Assembly (NCBI GenBank): GCA_029856045.1
Contig: JAHQWG010000012.1
Span: 128,001-192,000, forward strand
DNA: 64,000 nucleotides
Direction of reading: 5' to 3'
Source of the DNA: Promethearchaeia archaeon
GTDB taxonomy: Archaea > Asgardarchaeota > Lokiarchaeia > Sigyniarchaeales > SOKP01
The translations under genes were made by a program, and so were the position numbers. Below the pieces are notes generated by a model. It made no database searches, had not been told where the DNA came from, and saw nothing but the letters and a program-made list of their open reading frames with translations. Shown here in pieces: positions 15-55,316 of the stretch (positions within the stretch are counted from its first letter, which is position 1; the number at the start of each line of letters is the position of its first letter).

Positions 15-293
15 ATTAAAATAGTCACAGTAAATATACCAGAACCGTATATAAACGCCATTGATAAATTAACAGGGCATGAAGGTTTATATCCATCAAG
101 GTCCGAACTTATCCGGGTCGCTGTACGGGATTTTTTGCTTAAGGAACTCAGAATGGCAAGCAATCTTTCTCTTTATCAAAAAAGAACGCCTGAAGAAAAA
201 TTTGATCATGAAAATTTTGTTAGAGTTCCAGCTACCGATGTTGACTATGGGGGAGATAGAAATTTTAAAACCTTTAGGATTGTGAGAAAATAA
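15..293 (+). CDS. Ribbon-helix-helix (CopG/Arc/MetJ-type) regulator, probable ATT start; not in ORF track
   Basis: Manual translation: (M)KIVTVNIPEPYINAIDKLTGHEGLYPSRSELIRVAVRDFLLKE...FRIVRK*. RHH signature (N-terminal beta strand, YPSRSELIRxAVRD). In-frame TGA at 6-8; GGTGA at 4-8, 6 nt before ATT at 15. Confidence 0.85.
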   Translation: MKIVTVNIPEPYINAIDKLTGHEGLYPSRSELIRVAVRDFLLKELRMASNLSLYQKRTPEEKFDHENFVRVPATDVDYGGDRNFKTFRIVRK

Positions 294-446: not shown

Positions 447-1316
447 ATGTTAATAGTTGTATATTTTGATAAAATTATTGGACCTAAAGCAATCGCTAGT
501 AAGCCCGAAGATTTGATTAAAAACTTAAAAAAAGAGACCTTAAATCAAATTGTTTCTCTCTTAGATACTGGTGATGAAGGTTTTTTCACCCATGATTTTT
601 CTTCTGAACTTCGAACAGCAAATTGGATTTTTCGGGTACCATCTAGTTGGGCACGGGGAAGCATTGAACTAATTATGTTATCGGTAATTATTCAAAAAGA
701 AATTGAAATTAAAGAATATCAATTAGAAATGAAAAAATTTATTGATCAAATCATAAAAATAGATGATTTATATAAAGCGTTTTACATACACAATCCGAGT
801 TTAATGCATAAAACAGAGATTCAAAAAAAATTTAAAACTCTAAATGGTAAATTAGACAAATTATATAAAATCCTGTCGCTTAAGAGTGTGGAAACTGCAG
901 GAAGGTTAATTAAATTAGAAGATTTTCAAAAAAACAAAATCATTTCTGTTCCAAAAATGATGTTAATAAATTTAAAAAAATTAATTAAAAATAAAAAAAA
1001 TTTATTTATTGTGCATAGAATACGGGGCGATTCTCTAAAAATTGATGTAATTCCAGTTACTTCGAAAGAAATAAATAAGTTGGAAATTATTTTTGGTGTT
1101 GATATGACGCCAGCTATTATAAAAAGAATAAGTGATATCTTTTCAAAATATGAAATTTCATTAGTTTTTACGTCGGGAATCTGTCAAGAGGCAGAAAAAT
1201 GTATTTATGAAGTCTATGTTGAGCTTTTAAATATAAATGATCTTGAGGATTTAAAAAATGAAATCTATGAAATCGAAGGAATTATCGATATTCAGACTGA
1301 AAAATTATCCACTTAG
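447..1316 (+). CDS. Longin/uDENN (NPR2-like) N-terminal domain fused to C-terminal ACT-like domain
   Basis: N-terminal 'YFDKIIGPK' and 'SSWARGSIELIMLSV' are shared with 54240..55316. The C-terminal ~80 aa 'LEIIFGVDMTPAIIKRISDIFSKYEISL...YEVYVEL...LKNEIYEIEGIIDI' has an ACT beta-alpha-beta-beta-alpha-beta pattern. Confidence 0.6.
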   Translation: MLIVVYFDKIIGPKAIASKPEDLIKNLKKETLNQIVSLLDTGDEGFFTHDFSSELRTANWIFRVPSSWARGSIELIMLSVIIQKEIEIKEYQLEMKKFIDQIIKIDDLYKAFYIHNPSLMHKTEIQKKFKTLNGKLDKLYKILSLKSVETAGRLIKLEDFQKNKIISVPKMMLINLKKLIKNKKNLFIVHRIRGDSLKIDVIPVTSKEINKLEIIFGVDMTPAIIKRISDIFSKYEISLVFTSGICQEAEKCIYEVYVELLNINDLEDLKNEIYEIEGIIDIQTEKLST

Positions 1317-1583
1317 TGAAATTTATTGCGTAAAAATACTAAAATTAATAGTGGAGATATTAAAAATAAGAAAAAATTCCTTTTTTTTAAAAAAACAATC
1401 AAATTTTTACCCATATTATGTTATCATAAAGATCCTTCTAAAATAGCCTTGAAACCGTTATAAATAAAAATTAAAAATAAATTATATTAATTTTGAAATA
1501 CTAAATATTTATTAAAGGAAATCATTAGAATTAATTTAATAATCAATTAAGCCAATTTAAAAATAGGTATTTCTTTTACAAAT

Positions 1584-2129
1584 ATGTCAACAAAAAGAAC
1601 ACTTATCTATAAAGTTTGTGTTATAGGCGATGGAGGAGTAGGAAAAACTTCCTTGGTTCTACAATATACAGAGAAAAAATTTACCGAGCAATATGTGATG
1701 ACGATTGGAAGCAATTTCGGGATTAAGAAAGTTGAGATTCCAGAATATCCTGATTTAGAAGTACGATTACAACTCTGGGATTTGGCTGGACAACGTCATT
1801 TTTCATTTGTTCGCCCTCCCTTTTATCGTGGAGCTACAGCATTAATGTATGTTTTTGATGTTACACGCCGGAGTTCGTTCACAAACCTCCCGAATTGGAA
1901 AGAAGAGGCAGAAAAAGTAATTGGGCAGAAAACATCAGTGATATTAGGAAATAAGATTGATTTAGCCCAAGATTATAGGGAGGTAGGGTCAGAAGAAGGG
2001 CGGGCAATTAGTGAAGAATATGATTCAGGAGGCTATTTTGAAACTTCTGCAAAAGAGGAAGTCAATATTAAGGAGGCTTTTAATACGCTTGTATCAACAA
2101 TTCTAAATAAATTAAATTTTGAGTTATGA
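1584..2129 (+). CDS. Rab-like small GTPase
   Basis: GDGGVGKT, MTIG, WDLAGQ, NKID and ETSAK motifs; no C-terminal Cys prenylation motif. Confidence 0.95.
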   Translation: MSTKRTLIYKVCVIGDGGVGKTSLVLQYTEKKFTEQYVMTIGSNFGIKKVEIPEYPDLEVRLQLWDLAGQRHFSFVRPPFYRGATALMYVFDVTRRSSFTNLPNWKEEAEKVIGQKTSVILGNKIDLAQDYREVGSEEGRAISEEYDSGGYFETSAKEEVNIKEAFNTLVSTILNKLNFEL

Positions 2130-2337
2130 AGAATAATTTACGAGAAAAAAGTAAATTTTATTATTTAATTGAGATTTCTCCTTGATTATATTTTAATAAC
2201 CATTTATTTCTGCAATAATTATATTTTGATAAATCTAATTTTATATAAGATTATTCTTTATTATTGTACCTAGAAGTAGTGATTTTTTTAATATTTCATA
2301 AAAAGTATAAATATCAAAAAATTGGTTGAAAACTGAG

Positions 2338-3054
2338 ATGTTTGGAGGCGGAAAAATTCAATATGATCGAGCTCTGACTATTTTTTCTCCAGAGGGAAGA
2401 TTATATCAAGTAGAGTATGCATTAGAGGCAGTTAGAAGAGGAACCTTAATTGTAGGAATAAAAACAGAAAATGATGTGTGTTTAGCTGCACAAATAAAAG
2501 TTGCATCTACTTTAATGGAAATTGATTCAATCGATAAGTTATTTAAAGTTGATGAACATATAGGGTGTGCAATTTCAGGTTTACATGCAGATTCTAGGGT
2601 ATTAATAAACTATGCAAGGGTACAAGCTCAATCTTATAGGCTAGTATATGATGAACCAGTAAGATTAAATATGTTAGTAAAATCTATTGCGGATTTAAAA
2701 CAAATGTATACACAATACGGTGGAATAAGACCCTTCGGTTGTAGTTTATTTTTTATTGGTTATGATTCAGATGGACCTCAGATTTATACTACATCTCCAA
2801 GCGGGATTTATCGTAGTTTTAAAGCTTTTGCGTTAGGTTCAGGAGAGACTACTGCACGGGAATTTATTGAGAAGGAATATAACCCAACATTTTCATTGAA
2901 AGAAATTCAATTGCTTGCAATAAGAACTATAAAGGAAAGTGTTGAAGATGACATAACAGCAGAAACTATTAAAATTTCTCAAATCTCTAGTGAAGATAAA
3001 AGATATAAATTGCTTTCTAAATCTGAAGTTGAAAGTTTAATAGCAGAATTATAA
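2338..3054 (+). CDS. psmA: Proteasome alpha subunit
   Basis: YDRALTIFSPEGRLYQVEYA alpha signature, GGIRPFG. ATG at 2338 preferred over TTG at 2326. Confidence 0.95.
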   Translation: MFGGGKIQYDRALTIFSPEGRLYQVEYALEAVRRGTLIVGIKTENDVCLAAQIKVASTLMEIDSIDKLFKVDEHIGCAISGLHADSRVLINYARVQAQSYRLVYDEPVRLNMLVKSIADLKQMYTQYGGIRPFGCSLFFIGYDSDGPQIYTTSPSGIYRSFKAFALGSGETTAREFIEKEYNPTFSLKEIQLLAIRTIKESVEDDITAETIKISQISSEDKRYKLLSKSEVESLIAEL

Positions 3055-3122: not shown

Positions 3123-6100
3123 TTAAATGTTTTTAGTAAATAATATCGAATTCATTTCACTTGTGTAAATAACCACGCCATCCACAATTAATGTGTATTC
3201 AAACATAACTAAAAGTCCAGAGACACTCACTGAACTCGCATAGAATTGTGTAGTAAAAATTTTTCCTTCACCTGGATAAAGAATTTCATTCATTAACGTA
3301 TAATTATAACCAATATTGCCTTCACCCCAAGTGAATGTACTATTAATTAAACTACCTTGAGTAGGAATAGTAGCATTAACAAGATCAGAATAGATCGATA
3401 CATTAAGTACCACATTCCTCGCTGGGTGTGAGATATTAAAATTGACTTCTATTTCAATTCTTGAATTGGCTGGATTCGGATACTCTACTGTAGAATCATA
3501 GATATAACTTAATGTGACATTTCCTTCACTTGGTTCTTCTTCGGCTGTTATATTCAAAGCTTTATATGCCTCAATTGCGGACACACCATAACCGGGATCT
3601 ACACCTGAAAATCCATCGATTAATCCTGTTAATTTTAACTCTTGAATACCACTTACCGTTGCATAACTGGGTATAAAGTAATAGAGAGAACCGGCTAATG
3701 GATATATTAGGGTATTGCCATACCTATGCCCCGTTATTAATTCAATCTCTTGAGTAGCTGCAGTCCCATAGTAATCTCGAGCTGTCGCAGGTCCAACCAA
3801 ATTAATGTTAGTTAGACTTCTTGTATGATATAATATTGCCTGTCCGAAATTATCTCCATGTCTTATTACGTATAAACCAGAAAGAATTTTTGCCTCTCTA
3901 CCAACATACTCAACTAAATCAATTCCAACATACTCAATGCCATCCCCTAAATCAGTTTCTATATAGAAAAGATCTCCACCATCTGGTCGCTCATGAAAAT
4001 CATCACCTCTTCGGAATGTCGTAGGATCTTGAACATGATAAATATATTCCCATTCTAATTGTTTTTCAAAAAGTGTTTCAGGGTATCTTAATTGATCTTT
4101 TAACCAACTCGGTATATTCTTCCATGGATATTTTTCAAGATAGATTTTCCAAAATGGATAAGTCAAATCATCGTTAATACTTTCTTTTAAAGCAGGATTC
4201 TTATAAAATGTCATGCTGCCATCCAAAATATCTACTAAACAAATTCCCAAAAATCTATAAATTGGACTTTTGGAGTAAGACCCTATTGCAATATTAGTGC
4301 ATATAGAAACCCCATAATACACTTTACCAGAATTTCTATCAAAAATAAGATATGGATCATTATCTATCCAAAGCCCGGGTAAAAGTGCCCTTGAGACTCT
4401 GGTTTTTATATTTCTATTAATTAAATAACTACTTTCTGTCAAATTTAAAGCGTATGGAAATAACCCTAGGTTAGAAGTAAAATAAAATTGCTCAAGTCCC
4501 TCTAATTCTCCATCTGGTGCTCCTTTATATGAATATTTTAAGTTTTCAATTCCTGCTGACCAAGTTGTATTTAAAAGAATATCTGTCTCATATGCTCCAA
4601 GACCCCCTTCAGAAGAATCAAAAAAGCCATCTTCATCTGCTAAATTATCGAAATATGATGCAGTAAAGACAGAACTCTCGCGTTCACCAAAGAATATTGG
4701 ATAATCCTGAGATACATTAAAGATATTTTGATATTGACTTTCTGTTGCTAATAAATTACCAGTGAACGTATCCATGGCAAGAAATCCTTCCACATGATCA
4801 AAAAGGGCTGTGTGCAACTCTACGCCACCAGCAGTTATCCCGGACATTCTTAAGGTTTTTGGTGAAACCCAATATTCATTCCCTCCAATATAGATAATAT
4901 CACTATCTGCTATAGATTCATATTTTGAAGCAATCTGGGCAGACATTTTCTGAACTGCTGCACTTTGATCATATTGTCGGATGAGAGGTATAATTTCCGA
5001 ATCGGGAGTAATAGTAGACTCCGTATAATTCTCTATAGTGCGTTCTTCAAACATGTCTAATCCTGCACAAATTCGAGTCCACTCGACTTCACGAGCTGTT
5101 TTTTTATTCCATCTTTCTAAATTCCATGTAGAAGTACTTGATTCAATATTAACTGCCACTGGTATGCTAATGATGAGTGGAATTATTATAATAATTATTA
5201 GCCCAATAGCTAATATGCCCATTTTTTTCTGGTGGGAACTTAACATTATAAAACCTTTTCCTCGTTTCTTACCATAAAAAAATGTATATCCATTAATTAG
5301 GATCCCTAATACTATAAATCCAACAAAACCAAAAATCAAGGACGCCGATTGCAGAAGATTCAAACCGTCTAACGCAAGTAATGGTAAATTAAAAAAAGCT
5401 AATCCGAAAACAATACCAATAATTAAAAAGAGATCTGCAAGAGCATAAAAATCGTTCCTTCTAAGGTATGTATTTTTTAATATGTTTAAGATAATCCGAA
5501 AAATAATAACTCCTAAAATAAAATTTATTATGGGTAAATAAAGCGCTGAATAGAGAAAAATACTTGTTAAGTCCGTGCTATTTTGATCAAATAGCACATT
5601 AAATGCATTACTCATTAAATTTGGAGATAAATTAAAAATTCCATTATCTAAAAGATAAATTGCCCAGCTAAAATTTGATGATGCATCAATCAATTGACCA
5701 ATTAAATAAAAAACTCCAAAACCTATCGTCCACCAATAAATCATCGCTTTAAACTTAGATGTCCGACCCCATCCCAAATAAGTGCCGAGGAGAGTAAAAA
5801 GATTTCTTTCTGGGGGGATACTCATAATAATAGCCCCCAATAAGGCCCCAATTAAAGCAGTTTTATTAAATATAAAATTTGCGCTCCAAAAATTTAGTGT
5901 GAAAATTTCTACATAATTTACTCCTCCAGCTTTATTAGAATAGAGTTGAATTTGTAAATTCATTCCTGCTGTCCAACTAGGGATAAACCAAAATATTGAT
6001 AAAAAGAAGATAATTACAAATACCGGAATCAATAGTAAAAGATATTTTTTAAATTCTTTTCTCCTTTTAATTGGAGTATATTTATATCGAGGTTCTCTTG

Positions 6101-6335
6101 TGTATGCTCTATTATCTTTTTTATAAGGACCACGTTCAGATGGAGTTGTAGTTTTTTCTCTGACTTCAAATTTTTCCTCCTTAATCTCTCCTTTTTCTAT
6201 TGCATCTGGATAGAGTAGTTTTTCTTTTTCTCTTTCTTTTTGCTCTTCATTTGCTGCCCTACAATCTTTGCAGTAATAGTTAAATTTGTCATGTTTCTTA
6301 CAGGATTTCTTCTTTTCTTTAGTCATATTTATCAT
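3123..6335 (-). CDS. UPF0182-family multi-pass membrane protein with N-terminal CxxH-x6-CxxC motif
   Basis: About 9 TM segments, then a soluble domain with 'IYFGE'-like IFFGE, 'RNIKTRV', 'DNDPYL', 'LRYPETLF', 'YHVQDP..F' and 'GNTLIYP' motifs typical of UPF0182. Confidence 0.8.
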   Translation of the reverse strand: MINMTKEKKKSCKKHDKFNYYCKDCRAANEEQKEREKEKLLYPDAIEKGEIKEEKFEVREKTTTPSERGPYKKDNRAYTREPRYKYTPIKRRKEFKKYLLLLIPVFVIIFFLSIFWFIPSWTAGMNLQIQLYSNKAGGVNYVEIFTLNFWSANFIFNKTALIGALLGAIIMSIPPERNLFTLLGTYLGWGRTSKFKAMIYWWTIGFGVFYLIGQLIDASSNFSWAIYLLDNGIFNLSPNLMSNAFNVLFDQNSTDLTSIFLYSALYLPIINFILGVIIFRIILNILKNTYLRRNDFYALADLFLIIGIVFGLAFFNLPLLALDGLNLLQSASLIFGFVGFIVLGILINGYTFFYGKKRGKGFIMLSSHQKKMGILAIGLIIIIIIPLIISIPVAVNIESSTSTWNLERWNKKTAREVEWTRICAGLDMFEERTIENYTESTITPDSEIIPLIRQYDQSAAVQKMSAQIASKYESIADSDIIYIGGNEYWVSPKTLRMSGITAGGVELHTALFDHVEGFLAMDTFTGNLLATESQYQNIFNVSQDYPIFFGERESSVFTASYFDNLADEDGFFDSSEGGLGAYETDILLNTTWSAGIENLKYSYKGAPDGELEGLEQFYFTSNLGLFPYALNLTESSYLINRNIKTRVSRALLPGLWIDNDPYLIFDRNSGKVYYGVSICTNIAIGSYSKSPIYRFLGICLVDILDGSMTFYKNPALKESINDDLTYPFWKIYLEKYPWKNIPSWLKDQLRYPETLFEKQLEWEYIYHVQDPTTFRRGDDFHERPDGGDLFYIETDLGDGIEYVGIDLVEYVGREAKILSGLYVIRHGDNFGQAILYHTRSLTNINLVGPATARDYYGTAATQEIELITGHRYGNTLIYPLAGSLYYFIPSYATVSGIQELKLTGLIDGFSGVDPGYGVSAIEAYKALNITAEEEPSEGNVTLSYIYDSTVEYPNPANSRIEIEVNFNISHPARNVVLNVSIYSDLVNATIPTQGSLINSTFTWGEGNIGYNYTLMNEILYPGEGKIFTTQFYASSVSVSGLLVMFEYTLIVDGVVIYTSEMNSILFTKNI

Positions 6336-54239: not shown

Positions 54240-55316
54240 TTATTTTCTTAGATATTTGGGAAAGGATGTAGTAATCTGAATATCAGCTATTAAAACAACA
54301 AAAATTTCCTTTTTATATTTAAATTCATCAATAATTTCATGTTTTTTCAAAATTTTGAGAATTTCAAGCAATGAAGTAAAAGCATCTTCTGAAATTAGAT
54401 TTGGTAGAGTGTTTTTTAAGATAGGACCTGCTCGAAGTTTTGAAAGTACATTGTATATTTTAGGATCTGCAATAAATTGAAATAATTGAAATGAATCTTC
54501 CTTAGTTGGAATATATTTATCAAAAACTTTTTTAACTTTTTGGATAACAAGATCACTAATTTTTGGACTTTCGTCAAAATGCTCTATTAGACTTTTTGGT
54601 GGCATTCTTATAGCTTTAACTTCTTTTAAAAGAAGTAGATGTTGTTCATAGATAATTTCGGTTATTAAAATAAATTGATTATCAATAAATTTTTTTATTA
54701 CGCCATCAAACAATGATTGTTTAAAATTTTCATTAAACCATTTTTGTAAATCATCACATCTAATAGCACCTTTAGAAAGCTTTTCATGAGTATCAAAGAT
54801 TTCCTTCTCTTTAAATATAGATGCTATTTTTTCTTCTTCACTCTTATCACGAAATTCCTCTAATGATTTCCAATGTATTTCTTTTAACCAACTCTTAACT
54901 AATTCTTCATTTTCTTCTATATTTTTTTGAACTTTCTCATCATATTTTTGTTTTTCATATATATGGAATGCTTTATATGCCTCTTTATTAGATTGTAACT
55001 TTTCTGTAAATTCAATAAACCATAATAGAACATTTTTTTCTCTCTCTTTATTAACACTTTGATTTACAATTACCGATAACATTAACATTTGTCTGCCACC
55101 ACGCGCCCAATCAGAATAAATATCAAAATAATAATTCATAGAATTAAGATCTTCAAAATTATAAATAAAAAAGCCTTCTTCAAGTGGGTGATCCATAAGG
55201 TTTGCAATTCTACGCATTAATTGGGCATCTAAAGCATTTTCTGGAAATGAACAATATATTTGTGGACCGATTTTTGTATGAAAGAATGATAAAGTGACAA
55301 ATAATTTCAAATACAA
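54240..55316 (-). CDS. NPR2/uDENN-like longin protein with C-terminal winged-helix-like repeats
   Basis: 'LSFFHTKIGPQIYCSFPE' resembles the NPRL2 N-terminus (F..FH...GP.I...P); 'SDWARGGRQMLMLSV' is shared with 447..1316. Confidence 0.6.
   Translation of the reverse strand: MYLKLFVTLSFFHTKIGPQIYCSFPENALDAQLMRRIANLMDHPLEEGFFIYNFEDLNSMNYYFDIYSDWARGGRQMLMLSVIVNQSVNKEREKNVLLWFIEFTEKLQSNKEAYKAFHIYEKQKYDEKVQKNIEENEELVKSWLKEIHWKSLEEFRDKSEEEKIASIFKEKEIFDTHEKLSKGAIRCDDLQKWFNENFKQSLFDGVIKKFIDNQFILITEIIYEQHLLLLKEVKAIRMPPKSLIEHFDESPKISDLVIQKVKKVFDKYIPTKEDSFQLFQFIADPKIYNVLSKLRAGPILKNTLPNLISEDAFTSLLEILKILKKHEIIDEFKYKKEIFVVLIADIQITTSFPKYLRK

Follow-up and report, generated by a model that had tools for sequence, protein, structure and literature searches.

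The stretch analyzed here, referred to as the window, covers 64,000 nucleotides (nt) of a Lokiarchaeial (Promethearchaeota) genome of 3.34 Mb (G000:C15:128001-192000) and hosts near its start, at 447..1316 (+), a gene whose 289-aa product, hereafter LA, fuses a longin domain to an AbrB-like and an ACT-like subdomain. Our data indicate that LA is a three-part Asgard signalling protein and a probable GTPase regulator, in which a longin of the GTPase-activating protein (GAP) type is joined to a module marked by a pair of cysteines; we put the probability of this reading at roughly 55%. LA is a real, conserved gene, with 18 homologs (41-83% identity) in Lokiarchaeota/Promethearchaeota metagenomes. 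It is followed by open reading frames (ORFs) at 1584..2129 (+, 181 aa) and 2326..3054 (+, 242 aa), and the gap between LA and the first of these, a GTPase gene, spans 267 nt (1317-1583). The ORF positions, the gap, and the gene order agree exactly with a first-pass annotation of the window, which had proposed that LA couples amino-acid sensing to the regulation of the adjacent Rab-like GTPase.

The longin domain occupies residues 1-147 (447..887, +). An AlphaFold2 model of full-length LA, built on 17 orthologs, reached a predicted local distance difference test score (pLDDT) of 85.8, and a second model, restricted to residues 1-147 and based on 60 diverse homologs, reached 95.2. DSSP assignment recovered the longin order beta-beta-alpha-beta-beta-beta-alpha-alpha in both models. 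An exhaustive structural comparison (VIA), from which all Z scores reported here derive, placed FLCN at the top (Z 12.5, 132 residues aligned, root-mean-square deviation [rmsd] 2.7), followed by the solved longin of a Lokiarchaeota roadblock-longin protein (Z 11.6), NPRL2 (11.2), yeast Npr2 (10.5), and Lst4 (10.0). Matches at Z 9-10 included VAMP7 (9.8), adaptor sigma/mu subunits (AP mu, 9.7), DENND1A, and two entries of the C9orf72-SMCR8 complex, whose Z of 9.2-9.4 stands for the complex and not for an identified chain; sedlin scored 8.5. Longins of the GAP type thus outscore those of the SNARE, adaptor, and TRAPP kinds (VAMP7, AP sigma/mu, Sec22, and TRAPP, together Z 8.5-9.8), with a margin of just 1-3 Z units. 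In addition, Foldseek with residues 1-147 alone ranked NPRL2, Npr2, and FLCN first. The first-pass annotation had read the N-terminus as a longin of the NPRL2/FLCN kind and had named a fold search as the way to check it, and both comparisons bear this out. At the sequence level, a Pfam search of LA and its halves returned no significant family, and a PDB search with the same queries gave chance-level matches only (uL23m, FliG, NPRL2 at E 1.2, and CadC at E 0.5).

Two motifs narrow this assignment further. The strings FDKIIGP and WARG..LIMLSV, which had been singled out by the first-pass annotation, are located at residues 7-13 and 68-80, respectively. An alignment of 60 diverse sequences revealed that Gly12 is invariant and that Pro13, Arg70, and Gly71 are at least 90% conserved. 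In the domain model, strand beta2 begins at residue 12, with the Gly12-Pro13 pair (codons 480..485, +) that constitutes the GP motif as defined in PMC12290439, and Arg70 of WARG (codon 654..656, +), a candidate arginine finger, lies in the beta4-beta5 loop (residues 66-72). The GP motif and the arginine finger have been described as specific to the GAP longins FLCN, NPRL2, and SMCR8, with GP also found in C9orf72, and a class of Asgard longins carries both (PMC12290439, 2025). The eukaryotic finger (FLCN R164, SMCR8 R147) sits in the betaL4-betaL5 loop, and SMCR8-C9orf72 displays GAP activity on Rab8a and Rab11a in vitro (C9orf72-SMCR8 preprint); by loop position, Arg70 would correspond to FLCN R164.

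The domain is also mobile. It is carried by ~290 representative proteins (292 at E<=0.001), and its paralogs combine it, among other architectures, with an Arf-like GTPase domain and subsequent PAS/GAF modules or with PAS-histidine kinases. A functional link to small GTPases, as proposed by the first-pass annotation, fits these Arf-like GTPase fusions and the recurrent GTPase neighbours described below. Asgard archaea are rich in NPRL2-like longins, many of which are joined to two-component signalling domains (Liu et al.), and NPRL2-like longin fusions from these archaea have already been published (bioRxiv 10.1101/2020.10.19.343400). Given the fold matches, the conserved state of both GP motif and arginine, and these published Asgard precedents, we regard the modelled N-terminus of LA as firmly assigned to the GAP-type class (FLCN/NPRL2/SMCR8), and both this class and its fusion to signalling domains as already known from the literature. 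A sensor-longin fusion is therefore not a new concept. The window itself hosts a second GP-longin paralog (358 aa; 54240-55316, -), the remainder of which has no Pfam match and which lies 11.9 kb from the closest GTPase gene.

The C-terminal half of LA (the C-half) consists of a linker (residues 148-163) with an AbrB/SpoVT-like subdomain (~164-205), together encoded at 888..1061 (+; pLDDT 64-81), and an ACT-like domain of the order beta-alpha-beta-beta-alpha-beta (residues 206-289; 1062..1313, +). The latter adopts a ferredoxin-like fold at residues 208-288 of the LA model, and its best solved match is the metal-binding domain of NikR (residues 205-289, template modelling score [TM] 0.84, rmsd 1.7, ~20% identity in Foldseek; Z 8.9). 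The ACT domains of aspartate kinase (Z 8.3), PGDH, IlvN, and Rel match as well, and all ACT/NikR matches fall within Z 7.6-8.9 and TM 0.67-0.84. Pfam ACT families gave no match to LA at E<=1, and the only link to them is indirect, via the AbrB-ACT family. Since NikR and ACT-domain structures match, the ACT-like call holds at the level of the fold. Of the proposed ACT-like C-terminus, a fold of ~85 residues was thus recovered by Foldseek and structural comparison, but not a Pfam ACT match, and reading this half as ACT alone overlooked the AbrB-like subdomain.

Indeed, the unit exceeds the ACT-like fold, since residues ~148-289 also exist as stand-alone proteins of 140-170 aa. When 201 Asgard genomes were searched with a C-half profile, 148 gave matches, mostly stand-alone, with the fused form (290-320 aa) in a subset. 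A fold search of the ESM Atlas aligned residues 163-289 with small archaeal MazE_antitoxin/AbrB+ACT proteins (TM 0.63-0.68), and hhalign matched the C-half to the AbrB-ACT family over both subdomains (87% probability, E 3.7e-6, 119 columns) when a six-sequence profile was used; a single sequence against a 133-aa AbrB-ACT protein, one encoded in the window's own genome (L023:1483-1881), gave a weak 20%. The C-half also matched NCBIfam PRK08577 (E 7e-5 to 1e-3), with all scores under the curated cut-off of that family, and the AbrB-ACT family's own matches to MraZ and MazE are under the Pfam cut-off (E 3e-4 and 2e-3). Judging from these sequence and profile comparisons, residues ~160-289 are most likely a divergent relative of the small archaeal AbrB-ACT proteins, in which a swapped-hairpin-like subdomain precedes an ACT-like fold. 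The AbrB(SpoVT)-ACT proteins (NCBIfam NF006352 / PRK08577-like) share the two-subdomain layout and the length of the C-half. They differ in that the C-half lacks RGR..RK and has gained an invariant cysteine pair with flanking TSG and YExY. Since the C-half family shows no conserved equivalent of this basic motif of PRK08577-like proteins, DNA binding is doubtful.

The cysteine pair is the hallmark of the module. Cys246 and Cys252 are invariant, flank the beta2-beta3 hairpin loop, and are kept in fused and stand-alone members alike, within a signature, T-S-G-I-C-x(4-5)-C-x-Y-E-x-Y (residues 242-257; 1170..1217, +), that is itself invariant in both forms. It is this hairpin signature, rather than the classical ACT ligand loop, that represents the best-conserved site of the module: Gly217 of the beta1-alpha1 ligand loop is at least 90% conserved in close fused orthologs and is not among the columns conserved in the C-half family at large. 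We infer that the hairpin points to redox, metal, or another ligand rather than amino acids, and nothing in our analysis points to the amino-acid sensing that the first-pass annotation had proposed. NikR is comparable in that a small DNA-binding-type fold is followed by an ACT-like sensor, but the first subdomain of the C-half is AbrB-like and not of the ribbon-helix-helix (RHH) type. The NikR sensor binds metal, not an amino acid. LA has no match to NikR at the sequence level, and the His/Cys ligands of NikR could not be aligned with it. Collectively, the Cys-pair module is a widespread Asgard family without a name in Pfam, NCBIfam, or the ESM Atlas. In one genome (L048:6761-8513; G162:C6), a 440-aa ORF whose N-terminus is a GP-longin shares ~20 nt with a stand-alone C-half gene, and this gene pair is a split counterpart of the LA fusion.

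A tree of 28 fused LA proteins revealed three clades, between which the neighbouring genes differ. Relatives at 76-83% identity keep the window's order, that is, the RHH gene, LA, the Rab-like GTPase gene, and the proteasome alpha gene. Clade ii, the window's family, comprises four genera (g1, g3, g5, and g8) and displays a conserved block composed of a V4R gene, an Arl8-like GTPase gene (334-351 aa), a gene for a 444-536-aa protein, and then, divergently, the RHH gene and LA. Within this clade, the Rab-like/proteasome pair lies 3' of LA only in g1 and in contigs L005-L007; an unrelated 404-431-aa gene stands in its place in g3, g5, g8, and four further contigs. In four loci of clade iii, a Rab-like GTPase gene lies 3' of LA on the same strand, at <100 nt (L043) or ~1.7-2.1 kb (L041, L042, and L020), and these neighbours are orthologs of a different paralog of the window's genome. 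That paralog (G000:C41:101700-102188, -) is unlinked to LA there, and its orthologs carry the unusual P-loop context FGSQNVGKTS, which was read in the orthologs and not in the paralog. The distant clade iii contig L021 carries the window-type Rab and proteasome alpha genes, a gene for a 496-aa protein, and then LA 81 nt on; its GTPase, 2.5 kb from LA, has the window's GTPase as its best match in the window's genome (2.7e-49 vs 7e-38 for the next). Adjacency to this particular Rab orthogroup, on which the first-pass annotation had built, therefore holds in the window's own genus and in a pair of unplaced contigs (76-83% identity) and recurs in rearranged form in a single distant contig, but is lacking in sister genera and the other clade.

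In clade i (Hodarchaeota-type), represented by two loci (L022 and L068), a 401-402-aa Rag-like (Gtr1/RagA) GTPase gene is the divergent immediate neighbour of LA; between these loci, LA is 38% identical and the Rag-like GTPase 71% identical. A clear full-length Rag-like ortholog (403 aa; G000:C15:118413-119621) is encoded 8.8 kb upstream of LA in the window's genome, its orthologs lie 7.8-13.6 kb from LA in g1, g3, g5, and g8, and it is unlinked in G162. The Arl8-like GTPase of the window's genome (334 aa; G000:C15:124660-125661) is encoded 2.8 kb upstream of LA.

For comparison, we placed random 900-nt segments in the window's genome, which contains 58 GTPase ORFs in its 3.34 Mb; 4% of the placements had a GTPase no more than 300 nt away, and 10% had one no more than 2.5 kb away. 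A small GTPase gene lies <=2.5 kb from LA in four of the six context classes, against this background of 0.10, and no GTPase gene lies that close to any of 20 stand-alone C-half genes taken from different genera. LA, which has a small GTPase gene nearby in each of its three clades, is thus recurrently associated with small GTPases beyond these controls, but not with one GTPase. As a separate observation, the genes for the Rag-like (403 aa), Arl8-like (334 aa), and Rab-like (181 aa) GTPases all fall within 12 kb (G000:C15:118413-130126), a stretch for which the expected number is ~0.2; the intervening genes include a V4R gene and a Prismane/4Fe-4S gene.

The 181-aa product of 1584..2129 (+) is a Rab-like small GTPase (Pfam Ras, PF00071, 3e-47), whose solved relatives are led by a Thorarchaeota Rab (7e-36), with Rab7, Rab2, and Rab8 next. 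It belongs to a pan-Asgard orthogroup with ~60% identity, in which the catalytic glutamine (Q70, in WDLAGQ) is invariant. The protein ends in ...LNKLNFEL, and because a C-terminal cysteine prenylation motif is absent, we term it Rab-like and not a canonical eukaryotic Rab. The gene downstream encodes a proteasome alpha subunit (2326..3054, +; PF00227, 7e-54, and the A_N signature PF10584), and the two form a conserved pair that also occurs in L005, L007, L045, and L021. The first-pass annotation was therefore right about both neighbours, as judged by Pfam and solved relatives.

It had been more cautious about co-transcription, and the gap gives reason for this caution. LA and the GTPase gene are indeed adjacent and co-oriented, but the sequence between them contains a 69-nt promoter-like block (1474..1542, +), 42-110 nt 5' of the GTPase start codon, that is nearly invariant in four loci (the window, L005, L007, and L045), with diverged intergenic sequence on either side. 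Besides TATA-like elements, the block holds two ATTAATTT copies ~40 nt apart, and it could serve as operator and promoter alike. The conservation of this TATA-containing block suggests, as far as sequence can tell, that the GTPase gene has its own promoter or regulatory region. A T8 run (1382..1389, +), 66 nt past the LA stop codon, is a possible archaeal oligo-T terminator that is not conserved in L005/L007. A scan for sigma-70 promoters and hairpin terminators, which is unsuited to archaea, performed at chance level.

The mechanism that we infer from the folds, motifs, domain mobility, and gene neighbourhoods is as follows. LA would dimerise through its C-terminal module and/or its longin domain, and the dimer would serve as a platform that binds a small GTPase. 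Arg70 would then be supplied to the GTPase and stimulate GTP hydrolysis, and the Cys-pair module would modulate this regulation upon a signal, for which redox, metal, or a small ligand is likelier than an amino acid. There are three candidate client GTPases, namely the adjacent Rab-like protein, the 403-aa Rag-like protein (8.8 kb upstream), and the 334-aa Arl8-like protein (2.8 kb upstream). A complex prediction for two longin copies, the 181-aa GTPase, GTP, and Mg scored 0.01 against a mark of 0.32 and provides no evidence either way.

Several points weigh against a GTPase regulator. GAP, guanine nucleotide exchange factor (GEF), or binding activity of Asgard GP-longins is a prediction. Eukaryotic GAP longins act as heterodimers in which the other longin is non-catalytic, and no such partner was identified here for LA; the N-terminus of the Arl8-like 334-aa protein was considered for this role and rejected, as hhalign against the GP-longin profile gave a probability of 0.2%. 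The model of LA is least confident at residues 150-204, where pLDDT has the low values given above. Published work describes Asgard GTPases and longins as generally not organized in operons, and the three other GP-longin paralogs of the window's genome lie 6-12 kb from any GTPase gene. No single partner is indicated, because the neighbouring GTPase differs between clades, and the neighbourhood statistics are indicative only, since they rest on a small number of context classes that were drawn up with the data already in view.

The model of the first-pass annotation, in which an amino-acid-binding ACT domain gates GEF or GAP action of the longin on a co-transcribed Rab-like GTPase, as a one-polypeptide analogue of CASTOR/GATOR, draws on the adjacency and shared orientation of the two genes, on the same Rab orthogroup and proteasome alpha gene 2.5 kb from LA in the distant L021, and on the precedent of a GAP longin acting on Rabs. 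We consider this model unlikely, given that the adjacency is missing in L004 and in three genera of the window's family (g3, g5, and g8), that clade iii carries a different Rab-like orthogroup, and that the gap holds the conserved promoter-like block and the T8 run. Moreover, the C-half family as a whole does not conserve the glycine of the ACT loop, its conserved site being the Cys-pair hairpin, and Pfam ACT is not matched. LA could instead be a longin scaffold without GTPase catalysis, for example an adaptor or a SNARE-like or SRX-like docking module, whose GTPase neighbours reflect the dense and mobile GTPase genes of Asgard archaea. The Z of 8.5-9.8 for VAMP7, AP sigma/mu, Sec22, and TRAPP longins is consistent with such a role, as are the varying types of neighbouring GTPase and the distance of other GP-longin paralogs from GTPase genes. 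The GP motif and the loop arginine are, however, specific to GAP longins (PMC12290439), which also provide the best structural matches, and the pairing of LA with a Rag-like GTPase is kept across deep divergence; we thus find a non-catalytic scaffold improbable.

A role in transcription is a poorer prospect still. In that case, the AbrB/ACT-like half would bind DNA in a ligand-dependent manner, as do NikR (RHH plus ACT-like) and SpoVT (AbrB plus GAF), and the longin would be an input or docking domain. The homology of the C-half to small AbrB-ACT proteins, a Foldseek alignment with full-length NikR over ~135 columns, the conserved RHH gene beside LA, and the fusion of NPRL2-like longins to two-component signalling domains argue in its favour. 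Nevertheless, the C-half family does not conserve the basic AbrB residues RGR..RK, LA has no known DNA target, and the conservation of the longin GP motif and arginine would be left without explanation. A narrower form of the GTPase-regulator reading, which we offer tentatively and as unlikely when taken by itself, is that LA is a self-contained signal-gated Rag GAP, whose FLCN/NPRL2-type catalytic longin carries its own redox, metal, or ligand module and acts on the Rag-like GTPase, the divergent immediate neighbour in the Hodarchaeota-type clade that stays at a distance of 8-14 kb in Lokiarchaeia. If this were true, LA would foreshadow, in a prokaryote, the eukaryotic Rag / FLCN-GATOR1 axis of nutrient signalling, and the Rab-like and Arl8-like neighbours would be later or additional clients.

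Among known systems, LA resembles FLCN, NPRL2/Npr2, and SMCR8 in its longin fold, in the GP motif at beta1-beta2, and in the conserved arginine of the beta4-beta5 loop. It differs from them in lacking a DENN or NPRL2-specific C-terminal domain, in place of which it has the AbrB/ACT-like module, in its sequence identity of ~13%, and in that its GAP activity is predicted. Because its C-terminal half is AbrB/ACT-like, LA is not an ortholog of the full-length eukaryotic GAP longins. It shares its domain class and both motifs with the published GP/arginine-finger Asgard longins (PMC12290439) and follows the published pattern of NPRL2-like longins fused to a prokaryotic sensor or signalling domain (bioRxiv 10.1101/2020.10.19.343400). 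The available parts of the literature we searched make no mention of a longin fused to an AbrB/ACT-like Cys-pair module or of its gene neighbourhoods, and the search returned no paper joining longin and ACT in archaea. The likeness to CASTOR1/GATOR is conceptual, in that a sensor with an ACT fold stands upstream of a longin GAP whose target is a Rag GTPase, but those are separate proteins of a multi-subunit eukaryotic pathway, whereas LA is one polypeptide for which binding of arginine or another amino acid is unsupported. A prokaryotic precedent is provided by MglB-MglA, in which a bacterial roadblock dimer regulates a Ras-like GTPase, although MglB has roadblock rather than longin topology and no sensor fusion.

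Other genes at the locus are also conserved. The RHH (CopG-type) gene at 15..293 (+) is the conserved immediate 5' neighbour of LA in family f1; it was identified by tblastn from seven orthologs (53-78% identity over 93 aa) and matches PF01402 (RHH_1, 3.9e-6). It has no ATG, GTG, or TTG start; where its orthologs begin with Met or Leu, the aligned codon in this gene is one for Ile. Just 5' of the window lies the gene for a 472-aa protein of no known family (G000:C15:125803-127227, -, equivalent to L018:9800-11218, -), the most conserved neighbour of LA (37-69% mutual identity in seven loci; in L021 it lies 81 nt upstream of LA on the same strand). In the tail of the protein, three or four short W-x-E-E-L-type repeats, spaced by ~20 aa, precede a CPxC...CPxC zinc ribbon; no Pfam family was matched, and the Atlas model is poor (pLDDT 0.34) and allowed no fold assignment. 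Downstream, convergent with the proteasome alpha gene, a 1070-aa multi-pass membrane protein with a UPF0182-like region (PF03699, 7e-11) is encoded at 3123-6335 (-). Elsewhere in the genome, a cluster on C27 with RHH, C-half-like, and GP-longin genes within 7 kb was considered as a paralogous cluster and judged coincidental, because its C-half-like gene lacks both cysteines and sits among RNase P and ribosomal genes.

Whether Asgard longins already acted as GAPs bears on how eukaryotic Rag, Arf, and Rab regulation and nutrient signalling arose. LA is a compact, soluble-looking candidate of 289 aa that combines both catalytic motifs with a built-in sensor module, and the three genomically linked GTPases (Rag-like, Arl8-like, and Rab-like) constitute a short client list. 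Given these features, the GAP question becomes directly testable with recombinant proteins and point mutants.

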